Positions 8,592-44,730 of a DNA stretch of 64,000 nt are shown here, piece after piece; the first letter of the stretch is position 1; every line of letters begins with the position of its first letter. The notes under the pieces are model-generated. The model worked only from the letters and a program-made list of their open reading frames with translations. It did not search any database and was not told the DNA's origin. The position numbers were made by a program, and so were the translations under genes. The DNA is from Nitrospirota bacterium (GTDB taxonomy: Bacteria; JACPQY01), in contig JACPQY010000085.1 in assembly GCA_016190245.1 (NCBI GenBank), forward strand, positions 35,095 through 99,094, given 5' to 3'.

Positions 8592-9642
8592 GGGGTCAGA
8601 GCTTGACTTTGGACTCATCGAGCCTCCTTTCGCAGGCATTCACCACGGATCGTAGCGCCAGGTCCCGTTCCAAACGCCCCTTCATTCGGTCGGCGGCTTT
8701 GGCCACCGCACTGTACTGAACTCCATCCAACGCCCGCCCAATCTCTCCATACGTCTCTGTCCCACGCCGGGTCGCCAAGTACATCGCCACCGCCCGCGCC
8801 GGCTGCTCCCCGTCCCGACGCCGAACCGCCTCGACCGGTATCCGCCAAACCTCCGCCACCACCGGAACGATCTCCTTCACGCCCCAACCACGCCCCCTTA
8901 TCGCACGGGCCTCCGGCACGTCCAAATCCTTCCCCGCATACCGACCGTCCACCATCCGACCCACTCGCTCCCAAAACGCCTCCCCACCCAACACCCCCCC
9001 GGCGCGAACTTCGCTCGCCAGGTCCCGACCGGCCCCCTCCATCCCATCGGCCACGAACCGACGGTAGAACCCCTGCGCTCGCCTCTCCGAACGGTGAAAC
9101 TGCCCCAACGTCCACTCCCGATCCAACGGGATGTCCCCCGGAACGGTGCGCGAAATGAAATGACAAAGGCTGGAATACGAGTAGGCCTCCGGCTTGTCAC
9201 AAAGACCCGCTCGAAGCGGATTGAGATGGATGTAACGCGACAGTTCCAAGCCGTAGGCCTCCTTCTCAACCAAGATCGCCTTGTACCGACCGCTGAACAG
9301 GTGCCCCACGCGCCGATGCCCACGGTTGAACCAGACCGTGTACCGGGTCTGAAGCGCCTGCATCGACCGGGAGAGATTGGCCCGCGGTGTTTCGATCATC
9401 AGGTGGTAATGGTTCGTCATCAGGCAATAGGCATGCACCACAAGACCATACTTGGCTCGAACGGCGAACAGATCGCTCAGAAAACGGGCATGATCCCTCT
9501 CCTGCATGAAAAGGTTCCGCCGCTCGATCCCTCGGGCCATCACGTGGTACAGCGCCCCTTCAAATTCCATGCGCAGCGGCCGGGCCATGGCCTCACGCAC
9601 CTCCCCGCTCAACCCTTGAGTCCATAGTCAAGCTCTGACCCC
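8592..9642 (-). mobile_element. RAYT-type element bracketed by 24-bp inverted repeats (23/24 identical)
   Basis: GGGGTCAGAGCTTGACTTTGGACT at 8592-8615 and AGTCCATAGTCAAGCTCTGACCCC at 9619-9642 flank the transposase. Confidence 0.75.
8596..9588 (-). CDS. REP-associated tyrosine (HUH/Y1) transposase with C-terminal DnaA-like HTH
   Basis: MARPLR..YHVMARG..AYCLMTNHYHL (HUH motif), GHLFSGRYKA, YIHLNPLRAG; C-terminal ARAVAMYL..TYGEIG. Confidence 0.92.
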   Translation of the reverse strand: MARPLRMEFEGALYHVMARGIERRNLFMQERDHARFLSDLFAVRAKYGLVVHAYCLMTNHYHLMIETPRANLSRSMQALQTRYTVWFNRGHRRVGHLFSGRYKAILVEKEAYGLELSRYIHLNPLRAGLCDKPEAYSYSSLCHFISRTVPGDIPLDREWTLGQFHRSERRAQGFYRRFVADGMEGAGRDLASEVRAGGVLGGEAFWERVGRMVDGRYAGKDLDVPEARAIRGRGWGVKEIVPVVAEVWRIPVEAVRRRDGEQPARAVAMYLATRRGTETYGEIGRALDGVQYSAVAKAADRMKGRLERDLALRSVVNACERRLDESKVKL

Positions 9643-9704
9643 AAATCCGAAATCGCGAATCGAGAATCGGAAGACAAACGGGCAGGACGAGCCCACCCCA
9701 CTCG

Positions 9705-9911
9705 GCGCGGGCCGTATTTCGGAAACCCCTCTTTTCCTACTCATGGGCATTCCCCCTCGGAATGCCCGCACTCGCGCGCCTTTGGCTCGCCCTCCGTGGG
9801 CTCGCCGGGGGCGCGAGTACTGGGCCGTCCTGGCCCGCACTCGGCCCCTGCTTCGGCCGCCCTTCCTTGGGTCGGCCTGGGTGGCCGAGTACTGGGCCTT
9901 CGTGGCCCGCT
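9705..9911. repeat. REP-like hairpin cluster beside the RAYT (GGCATTCC-N5-GGAATGCC; GTACTGGGCC-N5-GGCCCGC x2)
   Basis: Hairpins read directly; homologous block at about 43260-43410; further GTAC-hairpin copy at about 18293. Confidence 0.7.
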
Positions 9912-10495
9912 CATGGCTGCGCCCCTTCGGTTACGACGTAGAGGGCGTTGATTCTCAAGCACTGGCGCGTGAAGAGGGTGAAGACGGTGAGGGTGTTGAG
10001 GTCGGCTCGAACGTCGATGAGCAAGCCCTCGCGCCCGTGGGTCAGCCGTTTGCCCATCGCCCGCGCCTTCTCGATGGCCCCGGCGTAGCCGGCATCGCCG
10101 TAGACGCCGGCCAGGTTGTAGAACGGTTGGTTAATCGCCAAGGAAAGCGGTTCTCCCTTGAGCATCAGGACCGGGAGGATCAGGCGATCTCGACAGGCTT
10201 CGCCGCTGACCGCCTCGATTCCCCCGTCGGCGGCTACCCTCGCGCGGATCAGTTCCCGCGGCGTGGGCGGCCGGTAGGCGAGCGTCCCCTTCGTGTCCTC
10301 GAACAGGGGATAGGATCGAGGCCCGGGGTTCAATGCCGTCTCCGTACCCATCGTTCGAAGGCCGACGTCCTGCAAGTAGGTCGGGGGCGGCCGCAGCGAA
10401 GTGCAGGCCGGCATGAGCAGAGAGCCGACGGCAAAGGGCATGGCTATGTTGAGCAGGCGATGTCGCCTGCGCTTGAAGCCGAAAGAGACTGTCAT
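9911..10495 (-). CDS. TRL-like family lipoprotein
   Basis: LMPAC lipobox-like; GEAC..GDAGY..A..DVRAD..QC motif typical of TRL-domain proteins. Confidence 0.6.
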   Translation of the reverse strand: MTVSFGFKRRRHRLLNIAMPFAVGSLLMPACTSLRPPPTYLQDVGLRTMGTETALNPGPRSYPLFEDTKGTLAYRPPTPRELIRARVAADGGIEAVSGEACRDRLILPVLMLKGEPLSLAINQPFYNLAGVYGDAGYAGAIEKARAMGKRLTHGREGLLIDVRADLNTLTVFTLFTRQCLRINALYVVTEGAQP

Positions 10496-10512
10496 CGGCG
10501 CACCAACTCCCC

Positions 10513-10875
10513 TCACAGCCTCACGGGATGACCCTGGACGATGGAGCAGTGCTTCTGATAGACGCCCAGAATCGAAAAGGACGATGTGTCGGCCTTCACA
10601 TCGGACAGGGTTGTCGCGCCATTGGCCCGAGACAAGGCGTCCTTCAGGGCGTCGTTGTAGCCCGCCTCTCCGACGGCGATCAGCCACAGGATGACGCTCA
10701 TGCATGCCTCCCCGCGCACCTCCTCTGCCGGACCGCGCCCCTCCGACGCCGGCACTTCCGCCGGTGTGGGCGCCCGCCAAGCGAGGGGCGAGGTCACATT
10801 CGTGTAGATGCAACCACACCACGCGACAACGAGAAGAGGGATCAACAGAATACGACTACGGTTGGATGAGGTCAT
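10513..10875 (-). CDS. TRL-like family lipoprotein
   Basis: WCGC lipobox-like; GEACMSVILWLIAVGEAGY..DVKAD..ILGVY..HC; SD GGAG upstream. Confidence 0.7.
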   Translation of the reverse strand: MTSSNRSRILLIPLLVVAWCGCIYTNVTSPLAWRAPTPAEVPASEGRGPAEEVRGEACMSVILWLIAVGEAGYNDALKDALSRANGATTLSDVKADTSSFSILGVYQKHCSIVQGHPVRL

Positions 10876-11050
10876 GATAGGTTCTCCTTTCTCAGTTTCT
10901 TTCCAACTGGCCCGTCGGCGATTTCGTTCGATACGCGGCCTTGGGGACGGGGCCTTGGGGACGTTGCCAGGCAAGTCAGGTTGTGCCATCGGGGGTGCTC
11001 CTTTCGGAGAAGCGAATCGGGAATTGGGAATCGCGAGTCGATCGGGCATG

Positions 11051-11749
11051 TCAGTATGCTCCTTTCCTGGTGAACTCAGAAAGGTCCACGAACTGGCGTC
11101 CCTGAGATGGGTCCGCCGGACGGGCCACTTGGGAACGGCTTGGAGGGCTTGCAGAAACCTCTTCTTCACATCGGAGTGAGTGGTCGCGACCTCCGCCCAT
11201 CGATTCCAGGGTTGGCGCCACCGAAGCCCTCGGGCTCTCCCGCTCCACCACGTCGCCCGAGACAATGGTGGACCACGGCATCACAACCGCAATCGTTGCA
11301 ACGCCGATCACCGGATTGACCAGTGCCGAGGCCAAACCGATGCTGAACGTCTGGCCGAACAGGCTGAACCAGTCGAGCGGTGTCACCTCTCGCGTGATGA
11401 GCAGGTTCCGGACCGCGAGCCGCTTGCCATCCCCGACTTCCTCTTCCACGACGCGCTCCAGCGGCTCGTTCTCGTTGAGCGGCAAGAGCCCCCACAAGGC
11501 GAACCACGTCCGGCGGGTCTGGGAAAAACGGTGAAGCACCCGTTCGTTCTCCGCCGCCGGCGCGAAGGCCGCATCGTCGCGCACGTGGTACCGCGTGCTG
11601 TAGCAGCCGGCCGTTGCAACCAGTGAGCAGTGAACAGTGAACAGCAAAACGAGGATGGAGAACCGGGAACGGCGACACTCTCCGCGGCCCTCCATGGCGC
11701 TGCGGGTGCCGTTCGCCGTCGCGGCACGGATCGGGAATCGCGATGTCAT
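11051..11749 (-). CDS. Bor/Iss-like lipoprotein (putative)
   Basis: TAGC lipobox; WFALWGL..ITREVTPLDWF..PWSTIVSG resembles the Bor-family pattern; SD AAGGAG. Confidence 0.45.
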   Translation of the reverse strand: MTSRFPIRAATANGTRSAMEGRGECRRSRFSILVLLFTVHCSLVATAGCYSTRYHVRDDAAFAPAAENERVLHRFSQTRRTWFALWGLLPLNENEPLERVVEEEVGDGKRLAVRNLLITREVTPLDWFSLFGQTFSIGLASALVNPVIGVATIAVVMPWSTIVSGDVVERESPRASVAPTLESMGGGRDHSLRCEEEVSASPPSRSQVARPADPSQGRQFVDLSEFTRKGAY

Positions 11750-11905: not shown

Positions 11906-11954
11906 CGCGGGCTAAAGCCCGCGACTACCGCCTGTGTCCCAAGTTGTGTGGTAG
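11906..11954. repeat. GTAG-type REP hairpin (GTAGTCGCGGGCTTTAGCCCGCG on minus) with an opposing GTAG
   Basis: CGCGGGCT-AA-AGCCCGCG palindrome followed by ACTAC (11906-11928); second GTAG at 11951. Confidence 0.65.
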
Positions 11955-12070
11955 CCGCACCCCCTTGCCGAGGATAGCATGGGGCCATGATAGGTTGCGG
12001 CCCAGGAGGGGCCGCATGGAACACGGCCTTTGCGGGTGCGTCTCGAAGACCCAAGGAAATGTTCCAAATG

Positions 12071-12282
12071 TCTTTGGGGACGTTGCCAATCAAAGCAACT
12101 CCCGCCGACTTCACTATGGGCCGCCCGTCACGATCTGTCGCTCCGTCCCACCCACCCCGATGACTCACCACCGCGGTCGAGTAAACGGTAATCCGCCACG
12201 GGCGGAGTGAACGGTGAACAGCGGGGCGAGAACCGGGAATCGGGAACGGGGGGCCAGAAGCCGAGAGCCGGGGAACCGTCTG
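12071..12282. repeat. ~205-bp intergenic repeat unit; permuted tandem copy at 42605-42858
   Basis: TCTTTGGGGACGTTGCCAA..CAAAGCAACTCCCGCCGACTTCACTATGGGCCGCCCGT and GTGAACGGTGAACAGCGGGGCGAGAACCGGGAATCGGGAACGGGGGGCCAGAAGCCGAGA are near-identical in both places. Confidence 0.85.
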
Positions 12283-12457
12283 GAAACAGACCGTGCGCGG
12301 ACTCAGCCTCATGAAGTTCAAGAAGCCGTCCCCATGCACATCGGGACGGCCCGGGCAGAGGCCAGGCCGGGCCTGCCGACTCACGACTGTCCGCCCAATG
12401 GCGGACTGCCGACTCCCACCTCCCAGGTTCTTGGTCACACTCATACCCCTATTAGTA

Positions 12458-12486
12458 TTAGACTCCTGATACCTTCGTTTTGTTCC
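12458..12486 (-). promoter_or_regulatory. ECF-sigma-type promoter, copy 1
   Basis: GGAAC-N18-GTCTAA on minus; surrounding ~40 bp nearly identical to 24136-24164 and 50501-50529. Confidence 0.6.
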
Positions 12487-12601
12487 AAAGAACGCCAGTT
12501 TTTCCATCGGTCCAACGTATTGTCATTGCCAACAATCCCGACTTGCCCCTCCACCCAACCTCGCCCCTTGTGGGCAGGGGAAGAGGTGCTACAATGAGCC
12601 C

Positions 12602-12991
12602 GTGAGCGTCATCCAAAAGCCCATCACCCTCGCCGGATCCAAGGCCCAGAGGGACGTGACGGCTCTTTTCGACTCGGGTGCCACGTACTCGTGCATCAAC
12701 CCCGAGATCGCCCGCGGGCTGGGGATCACTGATTCCCTCCCCAAGCCGATGATCTTCGGGACCGCCAAGAACGGGGATACCCTCCAGGCCACGGAGGCCA
12801 TCCGTTTGGATTTCCACCTCGCCGGCTATCGCTTCTCGGACGAGTTCATGCTCATCCCGGACCTCTCGGAAGATGTGATCATCGGCGCCGCCACGCTCCA
12901 GAAGTGGCGCTTCAAGCTTGACTTCGAGAACGACGAGGTGATCATCGATCCGCGCGTCACCAAGCTGCGACTCCTTCGGCTCGCGCGATAG
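12602..12991 (+). CDS. Retropepsin-like (clan AA) aspartic protease, copy 1
   Basis: ALFDSGATYSCI catalytic motif and VIIGAATL motif; TGCTACAAT 6 nt upstream of GTG (leaderless type). Confidence 0.88.
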   Translation: MSVIQKPITLAGSKAQRDVTALFDSGATYSCINPEIARGLGITDSLPKPMIFGTAKNGDTLQATEAIRLDFHLAGYRFSDEFMLIPDLSEDVIIGAATLQKWRFKLDFENDEVIIDPRVTKLRLLRLAR

Positions 12992-13045
12992 CCCGGATCC
13001 GGCCCAGTCGGTCATCGCCTCACACGCCTCCTCGCTCACCCCTTG

Positions 13046-13069
13046 GGTCCACAGTCAAGCTCTGACCCC
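13046..13069 (+). repeat. Solo copy of the RAYT terminal repeat, with ~30 bp of upstream homology to the transposase 5' end
   Basis: GGTCCACAGTCAAGCTCTGACCCC; 13018-13069 aligns to 9591-9642. Confidence 0.85.
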
Positions 13070-13084
13070 CAATCACACTTCGGG

Positions 13085-13113
13085 TTGAAAGTAGATAGCA
13101 CGAAGTGTATACT
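13085..13113 (+). promoter_or_regulatory. Sigma70 promoter of the vapBC-like operon (leaderless type)
   Basis: TTGAAA-N17-TATACT-N6-ATG. Confidence 0.75.
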
Positions 13114-13119
13114 TCGCGC

Positions 13120-13383
13120 ATGGCCATATCAGCCAAGGATCTTCGATACAGAACATCCGAGATCCTGGACCGCGTCTCGAGAGGGGAACGCATCTTGGTG
13201 CTGAAGCGAGGCAAGCCCAAGGCCGTCCTCGTCCCGATCGAGAGCCCGGGCGAGGGATCGAAGGAGGAGATTTCCCCGGCCTTCGGGCTCTGGAAAAACC
13301 ACCCCGCCTTGAAATCTCCCAGGGGTTGGCTCAGGAGGCTCCGATCGGGGCGGCACCCGTCCTCTTCGACACGGACGTCCTGA
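13120..13383 (+). CDS. Phd/YefM-family antitoxin
   Basis: ISAKDLR..SEILDRV.RGE.I.V.KRGKP.A.LVP is the Phd N-terminal pattern. Confidence 0.85.
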   Translation: MAISAKDLRYRTSEILDRVSRGERILVLKRGKPKAVLVPIESPGEGSKEEISPAFGLWKNHPALKSPRGWLRRLRSGRHPSSSTRTS

Positions 13384-13742
13384 TCGACTTTCTCCGCGGC
13401 CGTGAGAAGGCGCGGGATTTTCTCGACCGCGTGCCGATCGGCCTGCGCCGTGGCTCGCATATTGTGCTTCTGGAACTGCTCCAAGGGGCGCGCAATCGAA
13501 GGGAGCAAGGCGTCATCGAGCGGTTCTTCAGAGAGTCTTTTCCCGAAACTCATCCTGTCGCGGAGGCCGTTTCGAGCCGCGCGGTCGGGCTCATGCTGCG
13601 GTACGGGGCCACGAGCGGACTGCGGCCAGCGGACTGTTTGATCGCCGCGACGGCCCTCGTACACGGTACGGGCCTGGCCACGGGCAACGTGCGACACTAC
13701 AGCTTCATCCACGGTCTGGAACTCCTGAAATACGACCCCTGA
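13326..13742 (+). CDS. vapC: PIN-domain (VapC-like) toxin
   Basis: VLFDTDVLID..ELLQG..DCLIAATA..LATGNVRHY; start uncertain (TTG). Confidence 0.88.
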   Translation: MAQEAPIGAAPVLFDTDVLIDFLRGREKARDFLDRVPIGLRRGSHIVLLELLQGARNRREQGVIERFFRESFPETHPVAEAVSSRAVGLMLRYGATSGLRPADCLIAATALVHGTGLATGNVRHYSFIHGLELLKYDP

Positions 13743-13898
13743 AGATCCCCGGGGGCTTTGGGGCACGCCCCGTGTTGGGGACGAGAGTCGAGAACGGAGA
13801 ACCGGGAACCGGGGAGCCGGGGAAAGGGCGCGGGGTGCCCCGCCACCGTCCCGGGCTTCGCCATCCCACCCCGGCCCTTGGAACGCGAAAAGCTCCTG

Positions 13899-13914
13899 CT
13901 CACGCTCTGACCCC
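13899..13914 (+). repeat. Degenerate RAYT terminal repeat downstream of vapBC
   Basis: CTCACGCTCTGACCCC, 14/16 match to GTCAAGCTCTGACCCC. Confidence 0.55.
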
Positions 13915-13922
13915 TTTCGCAA

Positions 13923-14810
13923 CTACCTTGGTATGGGCACGGGCTCCCGCCCGGGCGAGATGGCGAGACCATCCAGCAGGAGCCTCTTGTCTCGCTCGTT
14001 TGACTCGTGGGCCCCGCTCACGGCGCCAAAGATGTTGCCCGAATACCACGTGACCTCGAAGAAAGCCGCCGCGCCTCCAACCAGGTAGAGCTGTCTGCGA
14101 AAGGCTTCGTACGTGGCAAGACCGAAGAGGGCATTCAGCACCAAGCTGGTGCCCGCATCGGCCCACCGTCCGAGGTAGACGTGGCCGGCCCCCGGCAGGA
14201 GGGCCGCTAGCAAGCCTGCCGTCACCGGCGACTTTTTCTGACGACCTTGGAGCTCGTGCGACACCCGCACTAAATCGTCGCGGTACTTCGCCAACTGCGC
14301 CTCATCAGGCATGGCTGCGAACACTGATGCGGCACGGGACCCACTGTCCTGATTCAGCCGAATCCAGCCCAGATAGAAAACGGCCTCGGAGGCGACTTCC
14401 CGATCCGAAGACGCACCCGGGGCGAGGAACCCGGAGAAACCCCTTTCGGCGTCGTTCCAGCGCCTCTCGAAGTAGTAGGTCTTCGCCTCCTCCAGCCGCG
14501 CGCGCTCTTGAAGGCCGGCTCCTCCCCCTTCCGTCAATGTTCGGAACTCATCGCGCGCGTCTTCGGCCCTGCCTTGCTGTGTGAGCGCGATCCCAGCCAA
14601 GAGCTTGGACCAGGGGGCCCGCGCACTCGCCGGGTAATAGGCACCAAAGCGACGGAACTCGAGGACGGCCTCATCGAGATGGCCTTCGGCGTAAAGCTCG
14701 CGAGCGAATGCCCAGGAGCGATCCTCGTCCGACTGCATAGGCTCGCCCCGTGCGACGGACGGCGAGACCCCCGCGAGGCTACTCAGGATGATCAGCACGC
14801 TACTCTTCAT
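13923..14810 (-). CDS. TPR (BamD/YfiO-like) protein with C-terminal membrane domain
   Basis: TPR-like helices (FARELY..A..EFRRF..YP.S); KKSPVTAGLLAALLPGAGHVYLG motif. Confidence 0.7.
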   Translation of the reverse strand: MKSSVLIILSSLAGVSPSVARGEPMQSDEDRSWAFARELYAEGHLDEAVLEFRRFGAYYPASARAPWSKLLAGIALTQQGRAEDARDEFRTLTEGGGAGLQERARLEEAKTYYFERRWNDAERGFSGFLAPGASSDREVASEAVFYLGWIRLNQDSGSRAASVFAAMPDEAQLAKYRDDLVRVSHELQGRQKKSPVTAGLLAALLPGAGHVYLGRWADAGTSLVLNALFGLATYEAFRRQLYLVGGAAAFFEVTWYSGNIFGAVSGAHESNERDKRLLLDGLAISPGREPVPIPR

Positions 14811-15312
14811 CCGGACCCACTCCCGAAAAGGACCAGAACTCATGCGCCTCCACCGGGTCAACATAGCGGAGGTGCCCATGGATGCGTTGGCGGGCATAGG
14901 CACGGAAATCTCCGTTGTCGCGGATCAGGCGGTCGCCCGTCATAGCCAAACCAAGCCACAGACCGTTGCGCCGGACCGCTTCGAGTGCGTACCGCGAGCA
15001 AGTGGGATGCATCGGGCAACGCGGGCCATCCATGCGTGAAATGGTTGTCTGGAAGAAACGCACGGCGAGATGAACAGGCAGCCCGACGAGCGACCCTGTC
15101 CCGAAGGCCAACGAGGGCTCGCCCGCAGCCGGACGCGGGGGCGGTTGGATCCACTCGATTTCGATCTGACCCGGGCTCCCCTGCGTCTGCCTTGGGCCCT
15201 GCGCCGCCAAGTCGCCGGCGATGGCGGCGCAAGGGCCCAGGCCGGAGATCGACGCGCCCCAAACCACGAGCGCGCACGACACGAAGGCAACGCATGATCG
15301 GGTCCAGGCCAT
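14800..15312 (-). CDS. YidD-like (haemolytic domain / membrane insertion efficiency factor) protein with signal peptide
   Basis: FFQTTIS..RCPMHPTCSRYALEAVRRNG..G..MT.DRLIR. Confidence 0.8.
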   Translation of the reverse strand: MAWTRSCVAFVSCALVVWGASISGLGPCAAIAGDLAAQGPRQTQGSPGQIEIEWIQPPPRPAAGEPSLAFGTGSLVGLPVHLAVRFFQTTISRMDGPRCPMHPTCSRYALEAVRRNGLWLGLAMTGDRLIRDNGDFRAYARQRIHGHLRYVDPVEAHEFWSFSGVGPDEE

Positions 15313-35691: not shown

Positions 35692-35755
35692 CCCCTGCCC
35701 TCCTCCACCCAGGCCCGAATTGCCGCCCGTGGCGCGTGGTGGTACGATTCTCTTC

Positions 35756-35971
35756 GTGGCAAGAAAGCGGGAAACCTTTCGCGCGACGTTCGTAAAGGAC
35801 GGCAAGTGGTGGGTAGCCTGGACGGATGACGTGCCCGGTGCCCTCACGCAGGGCGCAACTCTGGCAGAGGCTCGCGAGAACCTGAGGGACGCCATTCGAC
35901 TCATGCTTGAGCCCCTCGACTTGACCCGGCTGCCCAAGCGGGACGTCCGCGTCGAAACGATCTCCGTTTGA
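35756..35971 (+). CDS. hicB: HicB-family antitoxin (short form)
   Basis: WWVAW.DDVPGALTQG.TL.EARENL.DAI; TGGTACGAT 7 nt upstream of GTG. Confidence 0.85.
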   Translation: MARKRETFRATFVKDGKWWVAWTDDVPGALTQGATLAEARENLRDAIRLMLEPLDLTRLPKRDVRVETISV

Positions 35972-36159
35972 AGCGCCGCGAGTTGATCCGTCATCTCGAA
36001 AGCCACGGGTGTGCGCTGATCCGAGAGGGAGCCAAGCACAGCCGGTACGTGAATCTCGCCGACCCTCGACGCCAGACTTCGGTGCCGAGGCACCGAGAAA
36101 TCGCCGACCTCCTCGCGGTCAAGATCTGCCGCCAGCTCGGCGTTCCGGATATCCGGTAG
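35968..36159 (+). CDS. hicA: HicA-family mRNA interferase toxin
   Basis: MKRRELIRHL..GC..IREGAKH..T.VPRH.EI...L...IC.QL. Confidence 0.9.
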   Translation: MKRRELIRHLESHGCALIREGAKHSRYVNLADPRRQTSVPRHREIADLLAVKICRQLGVPDIR

Positions 36160-36224
36160 TCGGAACCTCCGCTCTCCTCCATCTGCGCGCCTCGCCTTCC
36201 GCCCCATGCAATGCGGCCGGTTCT

Positions 36225-36248
36225 GGTCCATCGTCAAGCTCTGACCTC
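36225..36248 (+). repeat. Solo copy of the RAYT terminal repeat downstream of hicBA
   Basis: GGTCCATCGTCAAGCTCTGACCTC; upstream ~35 bp similar to 44260-44297. Confidence 0.8.
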
Positions 36249-36334: not shown

Positions 36335-37663
36335 CTACCTCCCTCGCCCCCTGATGTGCCCAAGCTGTTGTTCGTCCCACTCGTTGGCCACCTCGGCCAG
36401 CCGCTGCAACCGCTCCGAATAGCCCGCCACCGTCAGCCCCGTGCTCGCTTCCAACCCCTGCCGCATGGCCCGGATGCGGGGGAGGGCCGCACGCAGGTAG
36501 GGCTCAAGCATCGGGAACATCGGATCGCCGCCGTACCCCAGTTCCCACCCGGCCGTCCGCGCCTCGGCATCCGCAAGCTGGGCCTCGATTCCACCGAGCG
36601 TCTGGAGCGCCTCCCCCACGGCCACGAACGTGGCCAAGGATTCCACCCCCTCACATCGCGTCGGCGTTCTGGACGCGTCCCACAGCACATTCCCACACTC
36701 CTTCATGTAGAGCTTGAACACACTGAAGGGCACGCCCAGTTTCTTGAGCACCGTCGAGAACTCCTTGTTGTCGGGAATGTTGCCGGGCGTGTTGGGGATA
36801 CCGGCCGAGAGGACCGGCAAGCCATCCGAGGCCTCCAGGATCTGGTAGGCGAGCGGCTTCGGATCGCTGGGATTTCCCGACCACTTCAGTTGCGCCTCGA
36901 CCACGTCGTAAGTGGTCTTCGCTGGACTCGACACCACCACGCCATTCGTTGCCACCCAGTTCCCCGCCTCCACGTCGCCCAGGAGATCCCACGACGGCGA
37001 ATCCACACCGGCGCCGCTGAGAACCGTCGAGAGCTTGAGCGGGGGCACAGCCACACCCTTGTTGGCGACCTCCATCGCATCCTTGGGATTCTCGATGCAA
37101 TCCTCCTGGTCACCGCCGAAACGCATACAGGTGGCCAACAGAAGACTGGAGATATCGGGCGCCCCATCACCGCCTCCGCCAGACCCAGCCAAAGTTGAAA
37201 GCGCCTGCGTCGTGGCCCCCTGAGACAGATCTCCAAGCTGCCCCTGCTGCATGGCCTTGGTAAGGAGGTCCCCAACAGATGGGAGGGCTGCCGTCATTGT
37301 CAGTTGGGTCAGGAAAATCCGCGACGTCGGCAGACTAAGGAGCGTGTCTTTCACCTTCGACTTGCCGTCCTCCGCCCACTTTTTCCCCAACTTCCCGGTC
37401 CGTTCCTTCATCATCCGGCCTACTCCTCGATCCAACGGTTGGACGGTCGTGGCCGCTGGAGAGCCGGCTCCGGCCTGCCCACCTGCCGGCGTGGCCGTCC
37501 CTGCCTGCGGCTGCCCCGCAGCCGGGGCCGGGCCGGTGCTCTGCACCTGCTTGGGCTTCTTGATTCCCCGCATGACCTGTTCCGTTTCCGCCGCGCGGGC
37601 GGTGGAGCCGAGCAGGCCGATCACAAGCGCACTGCCCATCCCGATGATGATTGCCTTTCGCAT
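36335..37663 (-). CDS. Secreted protein, possibly second TraH-like protein
   Basis: Signal peptide ARA; LPTSRIFLTQLTMTAALPSVGDLL weakly resembles the TraH helix; follows the second TraU-like gene. Confidence 0.3.
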   Translation of the reverse strand: MRKAIIIGMGSALVIGLLGSTARAAETEQVMRGIKKPKQVQSTGPAPAAGQPQAGTATPAGGQAGAGSPAATTVQPLDRGVGRMMKERTGKLGKKWAEDGKSKVKDTLLSLPTSRIFLTQLTMTAALPSVGDLLTKAMQQGQLGDLSQGATTQALSTLAGSGGGGDGAPDISSLLLATCMRFGGDQEDCIENPKDAMEVANKGVAVPPLKLSTVLSGAGVDSPSWDLLGDVEAGNWVATNGVVVSSPAKTTYDVVEAQLKWSGNPSDPKPLAYQILEASDGLPVLSAGIPNTPGNIPDNKEFSTVLKKLGVPFSVFKLYMKECGNVLWDASRTPTRCEGVESLATFVAVGEALQTLGGIEAQLADAEARTAGWELGYGGDPMFPMLEPYLRAALPRIRAMRQGLEASTGLTVAGYSERLQRLAEVANEWDEQQLGHIRGRGR

Positions 37664-37683: not shown

Positions 37684-37745
37684 TTAGTGTGTCCATCATG
37701 TCATCATATATATCTATGCCATATGATATCAATGTCAATATCCCT
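37684..37745 (-). promoter_or_regulatory. AT-rich promoter/operator island
   Basis: TTGACA (37733-38) and TTGATA-N18-TATGAT on minus; inverted ATCATAT..ATATGAT. Confidence 0.55.
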
Positions 37746-40700
37746 ATTGCCACACGCACATCGTGGGCGGCGTGGCCAGGAATTCAGCCGACCTCGAAGT
37801 GTTCGGTTCGTCCATCTTCGGACACTCGACCATGTTGGGTTGATCCGTGTTCGGATCCGTCCCAAGCTGATAGTGCGTCGGCGGGCTGCACTCCGCTCCG
37901 GGAGCGCAGGTGAGCTGGCATTGGGCAGGTACCCCACCTGCCGGTGGCGGTCCCGCGTCGGAATAAATCGGAACGGATTGGCCCGTCGCCGGGTCTCGAA
38001 ACGTACCGGGACAGCCGCCTCCCTTGCGGATGCCGCTGTCGGAGTCCTGGGCACTCGGGTCCGCCGAGTCGAACTTCTCGGGGTAGCCGGTACACGTGCA
38101 AATCTGCTTGTCACTCCCATCCGGCAGCCGGAACCACATGCACTTGCGCATCCGGATCTTGTGCGATCCGTTGCCGAACGCAGGATCCGTGTCCGTGCAA
38201 TAGGCCACCGAGCACCCGCCCAAGAAGGCCACGCGTTTCTTGGGATCCTTCAGGCCGGTCAGCATCCGGCGGTAGAGGTCATAGCTCGAGTACGGAATGC
38301 CGACTCCCCCCGCCACGTGCTGCATGTCCGTCGCGTTGGATCGCGAACATTCGACGAGCGAGGCATCGGCGTTCCAGTCCAAGGCAGGACAGCTCAACGG
38401 ATCGGCGGGGTCTCGCGGAGTCTTCTCGGTCGTGGAGCTGTCGCACAGGCCCTTGGGCTTGATGGACTCCTCCAGGGCCACCTTCTGAGCCGCATCCGTG
38501 ATGCCACATCCGAAAACCTTGTATGCGTCTGAATCCGTCTTCCCCGCGTCGGCCAGCCAGCCACACGCGTCCTTGGGCTCGGGATGGACGGCAGGGTCCG
38601 GGGGGACCGGCTTGGGCAGATTGCGGCCGCGCCTCTGCCGCTCTTCCCAAAGCCTGAGATCGTATTCGTATTGGGCCCATTTCTCCGCGGCGACCACTTC
38701 GGGAGCGGGATTGTTCTTCAGTTGCTCGTTGAGGTCATGTGCCTCCTTGGCCAAGTCCATTCCCTGACGAATCCCGTCCTGCACAGGCTGAGGCAGCGCG
38801 CTCATCGGCGCGCTGGACAGGATCGCCTTGCCCAAAGTCGATCCCGAACCACCCAAACGAATATCCTCGTACACCTTGTCCTCAACACATCGGGCGATCT
38901 CACCGGGGCGAGGCTTGCCGGTGGGGACGCAGCCCGCGAACGGCCCGGCAGGGGACTGCGCAGCCAACGTTTCCAACGCCTGATTGGCCAAGCCTGAAAA
39001 CAAGCCCACACCGGCATCCTTGTCCCTATAGCGTTCGCGATTGACCTGGCACTGGCGGATCACATCGCGCGCCTCCAAGTCCAATGGGAGGTGCTTGACC
39101 GCCACCCCGGCCAACGCCTGGCGAACATCGGGCCTGAGGGCACCGTAGAAACCCTGCCCACAGTGCACCGAAGCAAGCGGGGCGTCGCAAAGCCGGTCGC
39201 GGGCCACTCGATTCAGCGTGGAAACATCCTGCCCCAAGTATGGGGGATTCGTGTCCAAAATCCGGCCCTGACAGCCCTGCCAAGGGTCGGGCATGGGCGT
39301 CCACACGAGGGGACACCACGGCGGGCACCGGTCGAGGCACACGCCGTCGAGGGCCGTGAAATCCCCAGCCGTGGCCGGAAGGTGAGGGAAAAGGGCCGCC
39401 ACCTCGTCGGGCGGCCGATTGAACAGATCGCCCATCTCATCGATAGTCCACTTGCCCGCCTTCCGGTCCGATTCGGACCCCCCGAACAGATCGTCGCACG
39501 CCTCCGGCGCACCGTTGCGGATTGCGCAGTGCCCTGCGTCCTCCGGCGCGACGGGCGGGATTGCATTGAGATCGCCCGGGGCACACTTGACGCGAACGGC
39601 CCCGTGAATCTTGTCCGCCAGGACTTGGCTCCCGATGGTCTGGATCGTGCCGCCAAACCGGACCACGCTGATGACCGTGTTGAGATTGCGGAACACCTTC
39701 TCGATACTCCCACCGGGAAAGGCCTGCTGGCAGGCCGGAAGCGAGGGCGTTTGCGCCACATCCGCCTTCGCAACAACACCCACCAGATCGCTGATCTCAC
39801 CCAGGCATTCGACCGCGTGCTCGACCATCGCGATGGCTTGCCGAATCTGACTGTAGAGGGTGCGCAACTTGTTGACGACGTCGACGATCTTGGCGAGGAT
39901 GGAAGCCGCCTCAATCGCGGCCAGCGCGATCTCGCAGGTGGGGCCAGAGAATACTGTCGTTACACTGCATGTTGGCGCATATTTTGCAGCTTCCGCGGCT
40001 GCCATGTCCGATAGCGAGGTCATCAGGCACTGCTGCAGCTTGCTCGTATCGCCCGCCTCGGTCCAAACGATGAACCCATAGGAACTCTGCCTGGCAAACT
40101 TCGTCGGGTCGGTGCGACGCGCAGAGACACTGTACTCGGCAGGAATGGTGATCGTGATGTTGCCGTCGGCATCATTCTCGGGTGCAAAGCAGCCCGTCTT
40201 CTCCGGCCAGATCGCGTTGAATTGGTACTTTGACGGCTCGGCGAAAACATCACCATGCTCCACAAGCTTACCGCTCAGCGCCGTGGCTGCCCGAGAAAAA
40301 CCCCGCAGGGCCATCTGGAACGACGAAAGGAGCGGGTCCGTTGATGCGACCACGCCCTTGCGGGCATACTGTTGGATCGCCGTACTCCGTCCGACCGAGT
40401 CGTCCTCCCAAATCACCTTCTTGCCCAAACCCAGTCCTTCACCGAAGCTCAGATCGAACAACCCAGTGTTCCACTGGAACCAGTCCACCTCGGAGAAGTA
40501 GACGGGAAAGATGATCGGGGTGTCCTTCTGGGGCGGAAGATAGTCCGGGATCTTGTAGTTGTTCTCTACGAGCTGGAACATTTCAGGAAGCATCGCGTCC
40601 GCCGCATGGCAGATCAGGATCTGGAAGAGTTCCGAGACAAACTCGGGGTTGTTGTACTTCCACACGTGGACATCCCGGAACTGGATTCCACCTCCGCCGG

Positions 40701-41196
40701 CGTCGTTCACACCCGTGCGACCCTTGAGATCGACCGAACTGGAAAGAAGCGTGGAGAGGCCGCCCCAATCGAATCCTGGAAGCGCGTCGCCGATCGCCTT
40801 CATCACGACCTTCTTGGACGATTCCACCTTGGTCACGTCCGCGAGCTTGCGGAGAAAGTTTGTCCCATGCGGCGGAAACAAGAGCGTCTGCTCCCGCTCG
40901 GTCACCACTTCGATGTAGTACGTGGGGACCCAGAACTTCACCTCAAACCCAAGGGGAGTTGACGCCGGTGCCGTGAACTTGAAATCGAGGCAACTGGGTT
41001 CAATGAAGCCCTCCGCGTAGATATCCGCTGTGACCCCCCAGCCCTGAGCATGCGCAGGTACCCCAGCCATGGAGACCAAGCTACTCGCGACCACCATGAT
41101 CACGTACCGCGCATTCGCTGCTCTTCTTCGGCCAAGGTAAGCCGGAAAACTAGTCGGGAGGCGCACATTGATCGCCCGCTCGGGATCATGCGCCAT
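37744..41196 (-). CDS. TraU-like N-terminal domain fused to a Cys-rich C-terminal region (about 1150 aa)
   Basis: FWVPTYYIEVV, FRDVHVWKY, VYFSEVDWFQW motifs match TraU and the 4436-7972 protein; many Cys in the C-terminal two thirds. Confidence 0.6.
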   Translation of the reverse strand: MAHDPERAINVRLPTSFPAYLGRRRAANARYVIMVVASSLVSMAGVPAHAQGWGVTADIYAEGFIEPSCLDFKFTAPASTPLGFEVKFWVPTYYIEVVTEREQTLLFPPHGTNFLRKLADVTKVESSKKVVMKAIGDALPGFDWGGLSTLLSSSVDLKGRTGVNDAGGGGIQFRDVHVWKYNNPEFVSELFQILICHAADAMLPEMFQLVENNYKIPDYLPPQKDTPIIFPVYFSEVDWFQWNTGLFDLSFGEGLGLGKKVIWEDDSVGRSTAIQQYARKGVVASTDPLLSSFQMALRGFSRAATALSGKLVEHGDVFAEPSKYQFNAIWPEKTGCFAPENDADGNITITIPAEYSVSARRTDPTKFARQSSYGFIVWTEAGDTSKLQQCLMTSLSDMAAAEAAKYAPTCSVTTVFSGPTCEIALAAIEAASILAKIVDVVNKLRTLYSQIRQAIAMVEHAVECLGEISDLVGVVAKADVAQTPSLPACQQAFPGGSIEKVFRNLNTVISVVRFGGTIQTIGSQVLADKIHGAVRVKCAPGDLNAIPPVAPEDAGHCAIRNGAPEACDDLFGGSESDRKAGKWTIDEMGDLFNRPPDEVAALFPHLPATAGDFTALDGVCLDRCPPWCPLVWTPMPDPWQGCQGRILDTNPPYLGQDVSTLNRVARDRLCDAPLASVHCGQGFYGALRPDVRQALAGVAVKHLPLDLEARDVIRQCQVNRERYRDKDAGVGLFSGLANQALETLAAQSPAGPFAGCVPTGKPRPGEIARCVEDKVYEDIRLGGSGSTLGKAILSSAPMSALPQPVQDGIRQGMDLAKEAHDLNEQLKNNPAPEVVAAEKWAQYEYDLRLWEERQRRGRNLPKPVPPDPAVHPEPKDACGWLADAGKTDSDAYKVFGCGITDAAQKVALEESIKPKGLCDSSTTEKTPRDPADPLSCPALDWNADASLVECSRSNATDMQHVAGGVGIPYSSYDLYRRMLTGLKDPKKRVAFLGGCSVAYCTDTDPAFGNGSHKIRMRKCMWFRLPDGSDKQICTCTGYPEKFDSADPSAQDSDSGIRKGGGCPGTFRDPATGQSVPIYSDAGPPPAGGVPAQCQLTCAPGAECSPPTHYQLGTDPNTDQPNMVECPKMDEPNTSRSAEFLATPPTMCVWQ

Positions 41197-41200
41197 CTGC

Positions 41201-41797
41201 TCACCTCGGCCTCTGCGGCGCAAACGCCCCGCCGAGGAATGCGGCCTTGCACTTGGGATCCTCGGGGCCATTTCTCATGATCTCTGCCGCAAGCTTGCAA
41301 GAAGGAATGTTCGCAGCGAGCTTGAACTCCTCTGTCACTCTCGCGTCGTCCGGACCATAGAAGCTACCCGTCACTTCCATGTACGGACAGAGGCTTGCGG
41401 CAGGGCTTGCGTCGACATCTGACACGCACTGTTCGTACGCCTCGATTGCTCTTCGGGAGATTGCTTCGAGGGACGTCGCAAGATTGGGGCACTCCCCGGC
41501 AATTGTCTTGTTGCCTTCCAGAGCCTCGCTCACGGCAACATTCTCAAAGGCGCGCAGACATTCCTCGGGCGTCCCATGGATTCTTACTAGGGGGGCCTCG
41601 GGTGCACACACAAATGCAACCTCGCATACTTCCTTTTTCAGGAATTTCATCGCCGCCTCGTCGAACCTTCTGACTTCGTCGCTTTTCGCGCCTCCGCTCT
41701 TCTCTTCTCCGCCGCATGCTGCAAGGGCGAGCGTGAGAAAGACGCCTCCCATTGCGAATCTCGCGCCGCCAAGCCTGAAATGAAGACGCCCGCGCAT
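41201..41797 (-). CDS. 8-Cys lipoprotein, paralog L2
   Basis: LAAC lipobox, CEVAFVC..TPEEC, 8 Cys after the lipid Cys. Confidence 0.75.
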   Translation of the reverse strand: MRGRLHFRLGGARFAMGGVFLTLALAACGGEEKSGGAKSDEVRRFDEAAMKFLKKEVCEVAFVCAPEAPLVRIHGTPEECLRAFENVAVSEALEGNKTIAGECPNLATSLEAISRRAIEAYEQCVSDVDASPAASLCPYMEVTGSFYGPDDARVTEEFKLAANIPSCKLAAEIMRNGPEDPKCKAAFLGGAFAPQRPR

Positions 41798-41810
41798 CGT
41801 TCCTCCCCTT

Positions 41811-42467
41811 TCAACCCTTCACCAAGGGTCGTTTCGACCCGCGCTCCGGGGCAAACAACAAGTCGGTGTAGCCTTGCATCACATCGCCACAGGGATCCCC
41901 AGCGCTAAGCCGCTGGAACTCCTCTAATGAGACCCTGTTGTCTTGCCGAAAAAAATAGTCCTTGCAACCCGAGCTTGAAGCCTGTCCCAGGATTCCGAAG
42001 TCATCACCATCGTAGTAGGGCGCTTCGGACACATCCACGAACTGACACAGGCTTTCATTGGGCAGCGATGCGACATCCTCCATACATGACACGTACGACG
42101 ACGACAGGCCAGTCGCGCGAAGAAACTCTGCACACCTCGCACGGTCTGGAATCTCCAGAGATCCACTGACTCGCTGGTCCATCAATGCCCGGCACTCCCC
42201 CACTGTCGCCGGCGAAACCCGGATCGAAGTAGCGCTGTCAAAGATAGCCGCTTTTCTGCCATACCCACAGGCAAATAGGACGTCACACGTCTTGTGGTAT
42301 CGGACCTGTAGTGCATGGAGGTGGTTCTCAATTGGGTCCCCCTCGTTCCCCCCTCCCTCATCCCCCCCCCCGCAGGTGGGAAGAATCGTGAAGGGGAATG
42401 TGTAAAGGGTGAGCAGCAGGGCCAGGATCGAGAACCGTGAACCGAGAATCGTGAATCGATGGGTCAT
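41811..42467 (-). CDS. 8-Cys lipoprotein, paralog L3
   Basis: LPTC lipobox-like, CDVLFAC..TVGEC, 8 Cys after the lipid Cys; SD AAGGAG. Confidence 0.75.
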   Translation of the reverse strand: MTHRFTILGSRFSILALLLTLYTFPFTILPTCGGGDEGGGNEGDPIENHLHALQVRYHKTCDVLFACGYGRKAAIFDSATSIRVSPATVGECRALMDQRVSGSLEIPDRARCAEFLRATGLSSSYVSCMEDVASLPNESLCQFVDVSEAPYYDGDDFGILGQASSSGCKDYFFRQDNRVSLEEFQRLSAGDPCGDVMQGYTDLLFAPERGSKRPLVKG

Positions 42468-42479
42468 GTCAGGCTCCTT

Positions 42480-43500
42480 TCAGAACCGCAAATCGGGAAT
42501 CGTGAATCGGAAATCGAAAACCGAGAAAGGAGAACGGCTCTTGTGGCGAACCCTGAAGCGTGAAGCGAGACCCCATGCGGCATCGGCGCCGAGGCCCGGG
42601 AGTAACGATCATGCGTTCCGTCCCATCCGCCGCCACGACCCGCCGACGCGGTCGAGCAAACGGTGAGCAGTGAACGGTGAACAGCGGGGCGAGAACCGGG
42701 AATCGGGAACGGGGGGCCAGAAGCCGAGAACCGGGGAACCGTCTGTAAAGTCTTTGGGGACGTTGCCAAGCAAAGCAACTCCCGCCGACTTCACTATGGG
42801 CCGCCCGTGACGATCGTGCGTTCCGTCCCATCCGCCGCCACGACCCGCCGACGCGGCCGCCGTGCACGAATCCGTGCGCAGATCAAGCCTCGGGAAGTTG
42901 TAGATCGCGTCGCCGTCAACGTCGGGAGGGCCGCCGTCAAAGCGGGCACGGCTCTGCGACTGCACCTTGGGGACAGGCAAGTCAGATTGCCCCATCAGGA
43001 ATGCTCCTCTCGGGGATCGCGGAACCTTCGGGACGTTGCCAAGAAAGTCAAGCTGTGCCATCGGGGGTGCTCCTTTCGGAATCGGGAATCGCAAATAGGG
43101 GAACGGGGAGCCAGGGAGCCGGGGAACCGGGAAATGCAAATCGGGAATCGGAAACTGAGAACAGCCGGTCTGGATTCCGGCTTCCACCGGAATGACGGAC
43201 CTTGACCCCGCAGCGCGCCGGATTCCCCGCCAGCCGGCGGGGAATGACGCACCCCCCTGCCGCGGCGCGGGCGCGTCTCCGAAAACCCCTCCTGTCTCTC
43301 CATAGGCATTCCCCCTCGGAATGCCCGCACCCTCGGTTCTTCGGCTCGCCCTCTCCGCCACGGCGGACTCGCCTGATCCTCGGGTACTGGGCCTTCGTGG
43401 CCCGCACCGCTCGAAATCCCGCCTCACCTTCCCGGCTCGGCCGGTACTCACGGCACGGGGTCGTCCTGGCCCGCCACTCCACCTCTCTGGTGAGGTTCCC
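42480..43500. repeat. Repeat-dense intergenic mosaic
   Basis: Blocks homologous to 12071-12282, 10958-11030 and 9705-9911, heptamer tracts, and a GTCATTCCGG..CCGGAATCCAG-type palindrome near 43168-43197. Confidence 0.8.
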
Positions 43501-43731
43501 TGACTCATCCCCTACCATGGGCCACCTGATCGCGCAAGCGCAGCACGGCAGTCGGCAGCGGGCAGCCGGACCACCTGTCCGGGCGAGTGTATTGGAGTAT
43601 GCCGTCCCCGGTAATACCGGTGGTATGGGGGATGCCGGGTAAATCCCTGCCGGAACGTCGGAATCGTCGCCGGCGGGTCCGCTCTCCAATCGCTCGATCC
43701 CCGGGGGCGTGAACGGTGCTACAATGCCCCC

Positions 43732-44109
43732 ATGAGCGTCATCCAGAAGTCGATCACGCTGGAAGGCTCCAAGCGCCGACGCCGCGAGGAGGCTCTCTTC
43801 AACAGCGGCGCCACCTACTCCTGCATCCGGGAGGACGTGGCGCGCTCCTTGGACCTGTTGATCCCCCTGCCTCGCCCCCTCCGCTTCGGAACCGCCGAGA
43901 ATGGCCATACCGTCAAGGCCACACACGCGGTCCGCCTCGACTTCCGAATCGGGCGATACCGGTTCTCGGATGAATTCATGGTCATCCCATCGCTCTCCGA
44001 ACCCGTCCTCATCGGCGCCGCCACACTCCAGAAGTGGCGGTTCAAGCTCGACTTCGAGAACGACGAGGTGATCATCGACCCAAGGGTCACGAAGCTCAGG
44101 CTGCTGTAG
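43732..44109 (+). CDS. Retropepsin-like protease, copy 2, with catalytic Asp replaced by Asn
   Basis: ALFNSGATYSCI (AAC codon); same C-terminus as the other copies; TGCTACAAT-N6-ATG. Confidence 0.85.
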   Translation: MSVIQKSITLEGSKRRRREEALFNSGATYSCIREDVARSLDLLIPLPRPLRFGTAENGHTVKATHAVRLDFRIGRYRFSDEFMVIPSLSEPVLIGAATLQKWRFKLDFENDEVIIDPRVTKLRLL

Positions 44110-44262
44110 GCCGCACGCTTCGCAAGGAATTGAGATGCCTTCCTGGCATCTCTTTGCTGCTCCGCGTACAGGCCATCCGTGGCCGCACGCCTCGCGAGGA
44201 GTTGAGATGCCTTCCTGGCATCTCTTTGCTGCTCCGCGTACAGGCCATCCGTGGCCGCACGC
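44109..44262. repeat. 72-bp tandem repeat (2 copies plus 10 bp) containing two hairpins
   Basis: GGCCGCACGC starts at 44109, 44181 and 44253; GAGATGCC-TTCCT-GGCATCTC and GGCCA-TCCG-TGGCC stems. Confidence 0.9.
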
Positions 44263-44297
44263 CTCCACTCCCGCCCCACGCGATGCGGCAGGTCTCC

Positions 44298-44321
44298 GGT
44301 CCATGGTCAAGCTCTGACCCC
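44298..44321 (+). repeat. Solo copy of the RAYT terminal repeat upstream of protease copy 3
   Basis: GGTCCATGGTCAAGCTCTGACCCC. Confidence 0.85.
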
Positions 44322-44352
44322 CCAAGGCTTTGAACCGTGCTACAATGCCCCA

Positions 44353-44730
44353 ATGAGCGTCATTCAGAAGACGGTTCAGCTGGAGGGATCGAAGGGAGCC
44401 GCCGAGTCCCCCGCCCTGTTCGACAGCGGAGCAAGCTATTCCTGCATCAGCCCCGATCTCGCCTCTCAACTCGGCACGCTTGAGCCACTCCGCCGACCCC
44501 TTTCGCTCGGGACCGCCAAGAACGGCGACACCCTGACCGCGACACACCGAGTGACCCTCGATTTCTACCTCCAGGGCTTTCATTTCTCGGACGAATTCCT
44601 CCTCATCCCAGACCTTTCCGAGCAGGTCATCATCGGCGCCGCCACACTCCAAAAGTGGCGGTTCAAGCTCGACTTCGAGAACGACGAGGTGATCATCGAT
44701 CCCCGGGTCACGAAGCTGCGGCTGCTCTAA
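44353..44730 (+). CDS. Retropepsin-like (clan AA) aspartic protease, copy 3
   Basis: ALFDSGASYSCI; TGCTACAAT-N6-ATG. Confidence 0.88.
   Translation: MSVIQKTVQLEGSKGAAESPALFDSGASYSCISPDLASQLGTLEPLRRPLSLGTAKNGDTLTATHRVTLDFYLQGFHFSDEFLLIPDLSEQVIIGAATLQKWRFKLDFENDEVIIDPRVTKLRLL

Follow-up and report, generated by a model that had tools for sequence, protein, structure and literature searches.

A TIRtron and single copies of its terminal repeat beside toxin-antitoxin and protease genes in a Nitrospirota genome

The stretch of DNA analysed here (64,000 nucleotides, referred to throughout as the window) belongs to a Nitrospirota bacterium (assembly GCA_016190245.1, contig JACPQY010000085.1, positions 35,095 to 99,094) and carries, on its minus strand, a gene for a Y1/HUH transposase enclosed by an inverted pair of short repeats. 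Single copies of the same repeat lie beside small toxin-antitoxin (TA) and protease genes. A preliminary description of this sequence had called the transposase a RAYT and suggested that it might capture or shuffle self-contained cassettes at these repeats, like an integron run by an HUH enzyme. The observation itself is correct, and the type of element is already known.

The transposase gene and its terminal inverted repeats

RAYT-like genes with flanking terminal inverted repeats were named TIRYTs, and the units that they form TIRtrons, by Di Nocera, De Gregorio and Rocco (2013), who gave the tip of the repeat as GGGGWSAS and reported that the repeat overlaps the 3' end of the gene and that single, dimeric and grouped copies occur in some genomes (PMC3733652). 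Quentin, Siguier, Chandler and Fichant (2018) assigned the TIRYTs to subclass 2.1 of TnpA-REP, with a Bac_DnaA_C tail in 2.1.2 and tails resembling HTH_23/HTH_28 also found (PMC6006769). The premise of the preliminary description, according to which Y1 elements of the IS200/605 type lack terminal inverted repeats and RAYTs normally act on hairpins of repetitive extragenic palindromes (REPs), was thus incomplete, because RAYT-like genes with terminal inverted repeats already had a class of their own (PMC3733652; PMC6006769). The RAYT of that description is such a TIRYT, in which a Y1/HUH nuclease is joined to a probable helix-turn-helix (HTH) resembling DnaA-C, and its unit in the window (TIRtron 1) is composed as follows.

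8592-9642, 1,051 bp: TIRtron 1, the unit encoding the TIRYT
8592..8615, minus strand: terminal inverted repeat at the 3' end of TIRtron 1; the outer tip, GGGG, is at 8592, and the TIRYT stop codon TGA (8596-8598) falls within the repeat
8596..9591, minus strand: TIRYT gene, encoding a Y1/HUH nuclease with a probable C-terminal HTH like that of DnaA domain IV
9619..9642, plus strand: terminal inverted repeat at the 5' end of TIRtron 1, its tip facing outward at 9642 and a 27-nt leader lying between it and the ATG at 9591

The TIRYT translation matched Y1_Tnp (Pfam PF01797) with an E value of 7.6e-13 (49 bits, against a cut-off of 23), and both the HUH motif (HYH) and the catalytic Tyr, in SRYIHLNP, are intact. 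Its C-terminus resembled Bac_DnaA_C (E 4e-6; 27.2 bits, under the Pfam gathering score of 31.5) and the DnaA C-terminus of NCBIfam TIGR00362 (E 1.5e-6), and the protein obtained 69.6 bits against the NCBIfam model REP_Tyr_transpos (NF047646), under the cut-off of 80. The tip of the repeat, GGGGTCAG, fits the consensus GGGGWSAS.

Both strands of the window were scanned with the 24-nt pattern RGTCCANNGTCAAGCTCTGACCCC, with 100 shuffles of the window as a control. There were five matches, at 8592-8615 (-), 9619-9642 (+), 13046-13069 (+), 36225-36248 (+, one mismatch) and 44298-44321 (+), and RGTCCANNGTCAAGCTCTGACCCC found none in the 100 shuffles. The degenerate copy at 13899 (+) is also genuine: its 16-nt core (13899-13914) has two mismatches, for an expectation of 0.05 per window in the core scan. 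The motif is therefore present at all six of the positions given in the preliminary description, none of them expected by chance, and its inverted pair at 8592-8615 and 9619-9642 does bracket the HUH transposase gene. With up to four mismatches allowed, the core scan of the window yielded no additional copy above chance, and no inverted partner beyond chance for any of the solo copies. The 24-bp motif exists, but the true inverted repeat is longer, at 27 bp with one mismatch (8589-8615 / 9619-9645), extended by TTT...AAA to give TTT-GGGG...CCCC-AAA.

Folded as single-stranded DNA, the repeat formed a stem of only 4-5 bp in all copies and on both strands (z -0.5 to -1.8), and shuffled sequences folded equally well. 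Since the hairpin is so short and no better than that of shuffled sequence, the motif is a terminal inverted repeat and not a REP; a REP hairpin and an attC-like structure were both ruled out on these folds. The motif copies contain neither a GTAG nor a CGTC head.

Solo copies in the window and the modules beside them

The solo copies are all on the plus strand, and the gene map places each of them just 3' of a small plus-strand gene in minus-strand surroundings, as the preliminary description had it. The copies of the TIRYT's own repeat, and one of a second repeat family, are the following.

13010..13069, plus strand: orphan 5'-type TIRtron end, in which the repeat (13046-13069) is joined to 36 bp that match the TIRYT 5' leader as far as its start codon, with no TIRYT coding sequence left
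13891..13914, plus strand: degenerate solo repeat with the core CTCACGCTCTGACCCC, between the 3' ends of vapC and of a minus-strand gene (13923-14903)
36185..36248, plus strand: solo repeat unit, a 40-bp inner flank and the repeat (36225-36248), downstream of hicA and convergent with the gene at 36335-37663
44257..44321, plus strand: solo repeat unit sharing its subtype with 36185-36248, flanked on one side by the 72-bp repeats that follow protease 2 and on the other by the protease 3 promoter
12076..12105, plus strand: orphan repeat (GGGGACGTTGCCA...) from a second family, whose cognate TIRYT gene is on another contig of the genome (C81)

These solo copies are real, but the unit repeated there is about 63-65 bp long rather than 24 bp. 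The segment 13010-13074 is 86% identical over 65 bp to 9583-9647, the match spanning the TIRYT 5' leader to ATG+3 and then ending (leader score of 42, against a shuffle maximum of 25). The segments 36185-36246 and 44257-44319 are 84% identical over 63 bp, and these two have a different 40-bp inner flank of their own. Because the similarity runs inward past the 24 nt, we interpret the solo copies as single element ends with short inner flanks, of 5' or 3' type, and the 13046 copy, with 36 bp of TIRYT 5' leader attached, as an orphan element end. Among these solo copies, the leader sequence is kept only at 13046. A possible relic of TIRYT coding sequence beside 36225 and 44298 was rejected, as the likeness of CCGGCCGC..GCATGG to the N-terminal codons was no better than that of shuffles. 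The TIRYT leader itself (9593-9625, minus strand) contains a 10-codon open reading frame (ORF) that starts within the repeat (ATGGACTCAAGG...TGA), and the orphan end retains its frame and stop at 13020-13052, with a GTG start.

Further orphan repeats of the C81 type lie at 10957, 42756 and 43029, making four in the window with that at 12076, and orphan ends of different TIRYT families tend to accumulate together. Directly before the copy at 12076 is a repeat of about 100-130 bp (11940-12068), which has more than 40 copies on at least 25 contigs, with 77-95% identity; it is often found at contig ends, probably breaks the assembly, and has no Rfam match. A scan of the window against Rfam gave no match to a known RNA family. 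A role of the repeats as intrinsic terminators was ruled out, no terminator-like site being present at any copy.

The genes that the preliminary description had named (transposase, proteases, vapBC and hicBA) were confirmed with Pfam, and its 72-bp repeats after protease 2 were also borne out. The modules next to the solo copies are listed below.

12602..12991, plus strand: retropepsin-like aspartic protease 1 (Pfam), with an extended -10 element, TGCTACAAT, at 12587-12595
13085..13742, plus strand: vapBC-type TA module, with a promoter/operator (13085-13113), a Phd/YefM antitoxin (13120-13383) and a PIN toxin (13326-13742)
35720..36159, plus strand: hicBA TA module, with a HicB-like antitoxin (35720-35971; weak Pfam match) and a HicA toxin (35968-36159)
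43732..44109, plus strand: retropepsin-like protease 2, in which FNSG replaces FDSG
44109..44265, plus strand: 72-bp tandem repeat of about 2.2 copies, with a hairpin GAGATGCC-N4-GGCATCTC
44353..44730, plus strand: retropepsin-like protease 3, with no downstream repeat copy

The vapBC promoter (TTGAAA-17-TATACT; 10 of 12 sigma-70 positions) lies between the repeat and the start codon and is overlapped by a 9-bp stem-loop, and TGCTACAAT precedes each of the three protease genes. The window proteases are 70% identical, and the homology common to their copies comprises the promoter and the ORF only (12585-12975, 43710-44108 and 44331-44729). The spacer from protease to repeat is 54 bp in one case and 188 bp in the other, protease 3 has no repeat, and the spacer between proteases 2 and 3 is made up wholly of two small repeat families. 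Single copies of the 72-bp family occur elsewhere in the genome (C9:39422-39503, C11:34921-34995 and C29:25225-25304), and the surrounding sequence suggests that at least one other copy may sit within a coding region. More distant protease paralogues, on C6, C10, C62, C63 and C71, are not near repeats. Some of these paralogues, 26-31% identical, are near PIN-domain genes (C10:52183-53136, about 0.2 kb away; C71:48439-50168, about 1.1 kb away), an arrangement comparable to that of protease 1 beside vapBC.

The window modules are not contiguous, with distances of 22 kb and 8 kb between them. Two conjugation-like modules of the window, A and B, encode TraU-like proteins (4436-8008 and 37744-41271) that BLASTP aligned only over a 35-residue motif (E 4e-4); going by their sequences, A and B would be very old if they arose by duplication. 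Co-duplication of the proteases with these modules was rejected, given an alignment of 35 aa between the TraU-like proteins and 70% identity between the proteases. A third TraH/TraU-like module lies on C71 (62001-73820, reverse strand), and its repeat-rich upstream region, with intergenic repeats in common with the window, is 81-96% identical, in patches, to 42348-43600. In the slot where module B has protease 2, the repeat and protease 3, C71 has a plus-strand TA pair of the Phd/RelE type and no repeat of the window type.

In a comparison of orthologous loci, the closest homologue of the 442-aa protein encoded at 36335-37663 was 44% identical. Three Logan contigs were 100% identical to the window, and the only family-level genome (G001) lacked the window's genes and had a single solo copy, after a multihaem cytochrome gene. 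The homologue is the TraH-like protein of a further contig (L105; Logan SRR22387949, 59% GC), in which 45 bp (545-589) are identical to 8592-8636, that is, to the repeat and the last TIRYT codons. This end is closely followed by a compact operon that includes TraK_C and TrbI genes, and there is no TIRYT gene on that contig. Behind the TraH-like homologue, the genes follow at a spacing of 5 bp and without an insert, which is consistent with hicBA and its repeat being an insertion in the window and silent on how they were inserted. In its placement, the orphan end of L105 corresponds to the TIRtron, which in the window lies upstream of the other module (3195-8481).

The repeat family in the genome and in other organisms

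The genome searched comprises 3.29 Mb in 86 contigs, that of the window being C79. Eight TIRYT paralogues were identified by tblastn, 35-46% identical to each other, and seven of them are bracketed by an inverted-repeat pair of their own, located at about -45 and near or just past the end of the gene; the paralogue on C13 has no such pair. Most of the pairs begin with GGGGTCA or GGGGAC, that on C28 with GGGAC, and the tips read GGGGTCAA/G or GGGGACAT/GT, with the exception of C28 (GGGACGTT). Copies without a gene are dispersed through the genome for these repeat types, mostly in the form of head-to-head doublets of 51-105 bp, of which about 20 were found, with some singles. The doublets have the two inverted ends, the short non-coding spacer and the intergenic location of REPINs and of miniature inverted-repeat transposable elements; the four solo copies of the window have no inverted partner and do not conform to this type. 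Repeats of different families also cluster on C68, C39, C41, C63 and C65, and the repeats tend to sit 3' of genes; one has been retained 3' of msrAB orthologues with 88% DNA identity.

The family to which the window motif belongs (win1) has two clean doublets in the genome, one of 81 bp in the gap between dapA and dapB (C81:8368-8448) and one of 51 bp between a DsbD-like gene and galU (C79:128620-128670), together with a degenerate doublet and a solo copy on C28. None of these has a cassette beside it. Integron-like capture is not supported: beyond the window, copies of the motif are found in ordinary intergenic DNA, and a random distribution across the genome is what the preliminary description had itself named as speaking against its proposal. 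Likewise, the genome shows no enrichment of repeats near TA genes. Of 24 PIN genes, the vapC of the window alone has one of the 77 repeat copies at a distance of 600 bp or less (null mean 0.59, P = 0.45). What stands of the proposal is that the solo copies are the transposase gene's own terminal repeat and that each abuts a self-contained plus-strand module, vapBC being self-promoted; a function in capture is not supported.

Beyond this genome, 31 distant homologues from the Gamma-, Beta- and Zetaproteobacteria, Planctomycetota, Lentisphaeria, Desulfobacterota and other groups were compared, and about 18-20 of them carry inverted pairs starting with GGGGTCAGGTCTTG. Across 19 other TIRtrons, additional cognate repeats are present on both sides of the gene, and a repeat array on the 5' side was therefore ruled out as a general feature of TIRtrons. 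An exact scan of metagenome contigs with a 21-nt motif yielded 50 loci, mostly AT-rich and hence from other organisms. Nearly all copies at these loci are solo, the only complete TIRtron being L057, in which the TIRYT is 33% identical to that of the window and the repeat is identical at 23 of 23 bases. The repeat is thus conserved far beyond the enzyme: the TIRYTs of L057 and L088 are 33-39% identical to that of the window, in genomes with 44-47% GC, and the repeat of L088 differs at one position of the 16-nt core.

Probable co-accumulation and its alternatives

We consider it probable (about 0.7) that the motif is the cognate terminal inverted repeat of a TIRtron, that the solo copies are orphan ends, and that their neighbours have accumulated with them in tolerant DNA. 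The predicted roles are binding of the inner part of the repeat, which is clade-specific, by the HTH tail and nicking at the conserved GGGG tip by the HUH/Tyr core; the gene-bearing unit would thereby be moved or copied, as would short gene-less units, in trans. The four solo copies of the window would be orphan single ends, each a repeat with 36-40 bp of inner flank, probably left when TIRtron or doublet copies decayed, or else produced by one-ended events. They would sit in a few permissive gaps of a lineage-specific cluster with conjugation-like modules of the TraU/TraH type, and the same gaps would independently have gathered other small selfish or accessory DNA, namely vapBC, hicBA, a recently triplicated protease gene, the 72-bp repeat and the orphan repeats of the second family. 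The adjacency of repeats and cassettes would then reflect co-accumulation in tolerant DNA, aided by the tendency of the repeats to lie 3' of genes. Co-accumulation fits the data better than repeat-mediated capture.

Several observations weigh against co-accumulation. All four solo copies have the same orientation, are on the 5' side of the TIRYT gene and directly follow a plus-strand module; with only about seven such plus-strand genes among about 35 gaps, random placement is unlikely, in a test made post hoc. Protease 1 (12076-13069) and protease 2 (43029-44321) are each bracketed by inward-facing repeats of two families. At the 50 metagenome loci, ORFs on the inner side of the repeat included TA toxins in seven of 66 cases by Pfam (five PIN, plus HepT and MazF, the last two seen singly), and those on the outer side (57) no PIN among the listed families and two DUF433. 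Background ORFs of the same contigs (150) included four PIN, a further three PIN_3 and one PemK, or 5-8 of 150. The inner-side enrichment over this background has an odds ratio of 2.1-3.4 (p 0.04-0.13), the contigs being TA-rich in general. All six toxins checked individually (four PIN, HepT and MazF) are co-oriented with the repeat and on its inner side (baseline 56%, p = 0.03). Two contigs, L080 (1057-4677) and L088 (2181-4381), share their flanks, the TIRYT gene and two further same-orientation repeats 5' of it; between the repeats, one contig has HEPN-MNT and methyltransferase genes and the other a glycosyltransferase gene, with one junction exactly at the tip of a repeat. In L097 (794-2797), a 2-kb segment bounded by inverted motifs and located between argJ and hcp contains radical-SAM and GT2 genes and no TIRYT; a search for the empty site of this segment returned the same contig only. 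Finally, we found no enzymology in the literature for any TIRYT.

One alternative is cassette handling, a generalised form of the proposal in the preliminary description, in which the TIRYT would use its 5' repeat and the same-orientation solo repeats as alternative ends or recombination sites, thereby capturing, exchanging or carrying small self-contained modules such as TA pairs, proteases and glycosyltransferases. We regard this as unlikely. By analogy, such a system might function like an integron, or like the one-ended capture of IS91/ISCR, but with a Y1 HUH nuclease, directed by a DnaA-type HTH, as its enzyme. It would account for the layout of the window, in which the TIRYT gene is divergent from co-oriented modules that are each followed by a same-orientation repeat, for the recurrence of this layout in L088 and L080 with different genes between the repeats, for the repeat-bounded cargo of L097 and for the six metagenomic TA operons that lie on the inner side of solo copies and share their orientation; the proteases are also far younger, at 70% identity, than the barely alignable modules beside them. 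Nevertheless, the genome-wide association is absent (one of 24 PIN genes), the other win1-type copies have no cassettes, and the slot on C71 holds a TA pair without a repeat. Protease 3 has no repeat, and neither do most TA genes of L053, a TA-rich contig whose sampled part contains about a dozen small ORFs and a single copy of the motif. The duplication unit of the proteases excludes the repeat, the metagenome enrichment is borderline against the local background, other TIRtrons have their extra repeats on both sides of the gene, and no pair of empty and filled sites was found. A search for the tyrosine recombinase PF00589 gave seven matches in the genome, none of them on C79. The integron-like reading fails because there is no TA association genome-wide, the TA pair of C71 has no repeat, the protease unit excludes the repeat and there is no integrase; the analogy fails for every defining feature that could be tested.

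Two further explanations dispense with capture. The solo copies may never have been inserted individually and may instead remain from duplication and recombination between the sequences upstream of the three conjugation-like modules, which seems to us quite unlikely. The upstream regions of module B and C71 are indeed 81-96% identical in patches, with the modules themselves far more diverged, and several segments are common to the protease 1 and protease 2 regions; against this, the order of these segments differs between the two regions, the 63-bp unit at 36185-36248 is downstream of a module and behind the unrelated hicBA, C71 has no win1-type repeat, and the same motif is dispersed in unrelated metagenomic genomes. 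We give still less credence to domestication, in which the TIRYT would no longer be a transposase and the solo repeats would be binding sites for its DnaA-like HTH, acting as insulators, roadblocks or antisense promoters at the ends of antisense modules in minus-strand operons. An inward-facing TTGAC hexamer resembling a -35 element in the repeat would suit such a role, as would the tendency of the repeats to lie 3' of genes, their retention downstream of orthologous msrAB (88% DNA identity) and a conservation far greater than that of the protein (33% for the L057 protein, 23 of 23 bases for its repeat). However, the TIRYT has kept its HUH and Tyr residues, copying is implied by the REPIN-like doublets, the repeats have no terminator-like structure or T-run, and the sequence, read directly, contains no -10 element properly spaced from the hexamer.

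Compared with known systems, the locus has no defining difference from a TIRtron. It shares with the TIRtrons described the RAYT-like Y1/HUH gene, repeats that fit GGGGWSAS and the overlap of the 3' repeat with the end of the gene, as well as the presence of several paralogues per genome with repeats of their own and moderately abundant single, dimeric and grouped copies; its C-terminus is a candidate Bac_DnaA_C-like HTH. Its particulars are local: the win1 singles cluster within 36 kb 5' of the gene and abut TA and protease modules, orphan ends of two families are interleaved, and the exact repeat of 21-24 nt recurs in AT-rich metagenomic genomes in which the TIRYTs are 33-39% identical. With RAYT/REP systems and REPINs (Nunvar 2010, PMC2817692; Bertels and Rainey 2011, PMC3116915), it has in common a Y1 HUH enzyme between inverted short repeats that are dispersed as inverted doublets 3' of genes, but it lacks the 20-40 bp palindrome tagged with GTAG/CGTC, has about 10 copies rather than tens to hundreds, probably carries an extra HTH and falls below the REP_Tyr_transpos cut-off. 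IS200/IS605 elements have subterminal hairpins and near-identical copies, whereas terminal inverted repeats are present here and the eight paralogues are only 35-46% identical. Integrons combine IntI and attI with contiguous, mostly promoterless cassettes that each end in an attC site, TA cassettes of chromosomal integrons included. The likeness to them is superficial and limited to the layout, a recombinase-type gene pointing away from small modules that share one orientation and have similar short sites behind them: there is no tyrosine recombinase beside the array, the sites are unstructured, unlike attC hairpins, and the modules are self-promoted, have up to 22 kb of unrelated operons between them and do not all have a site. 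IS91/ISCR elements also have an HUH enzyme, and the use of alternative downstream ends to carry neighbouring DNA is conceivable here; their enzymes, however, are Y2/Rep-like with distinct ori and ter ends, and no read-through products are evident at this locus.

TIRYTs received their name in 2013 and occur widely, in many phyla. This genome offers a compact natural test bed for them, with eight paralogues, seven of which have a private repeat pair, many REPIN-like doublets and the orphan ends of one family near its gene. Cassette handling, as raised by the borderline TA enrichment, the variation between L080 and L088 and the cargo of L097, would, if true, add a new class of enzyme to the few gene-capture systems. 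The locus itself shows selfish modules piling up in a few tolerant gaps of a densely packed accessory cluster.

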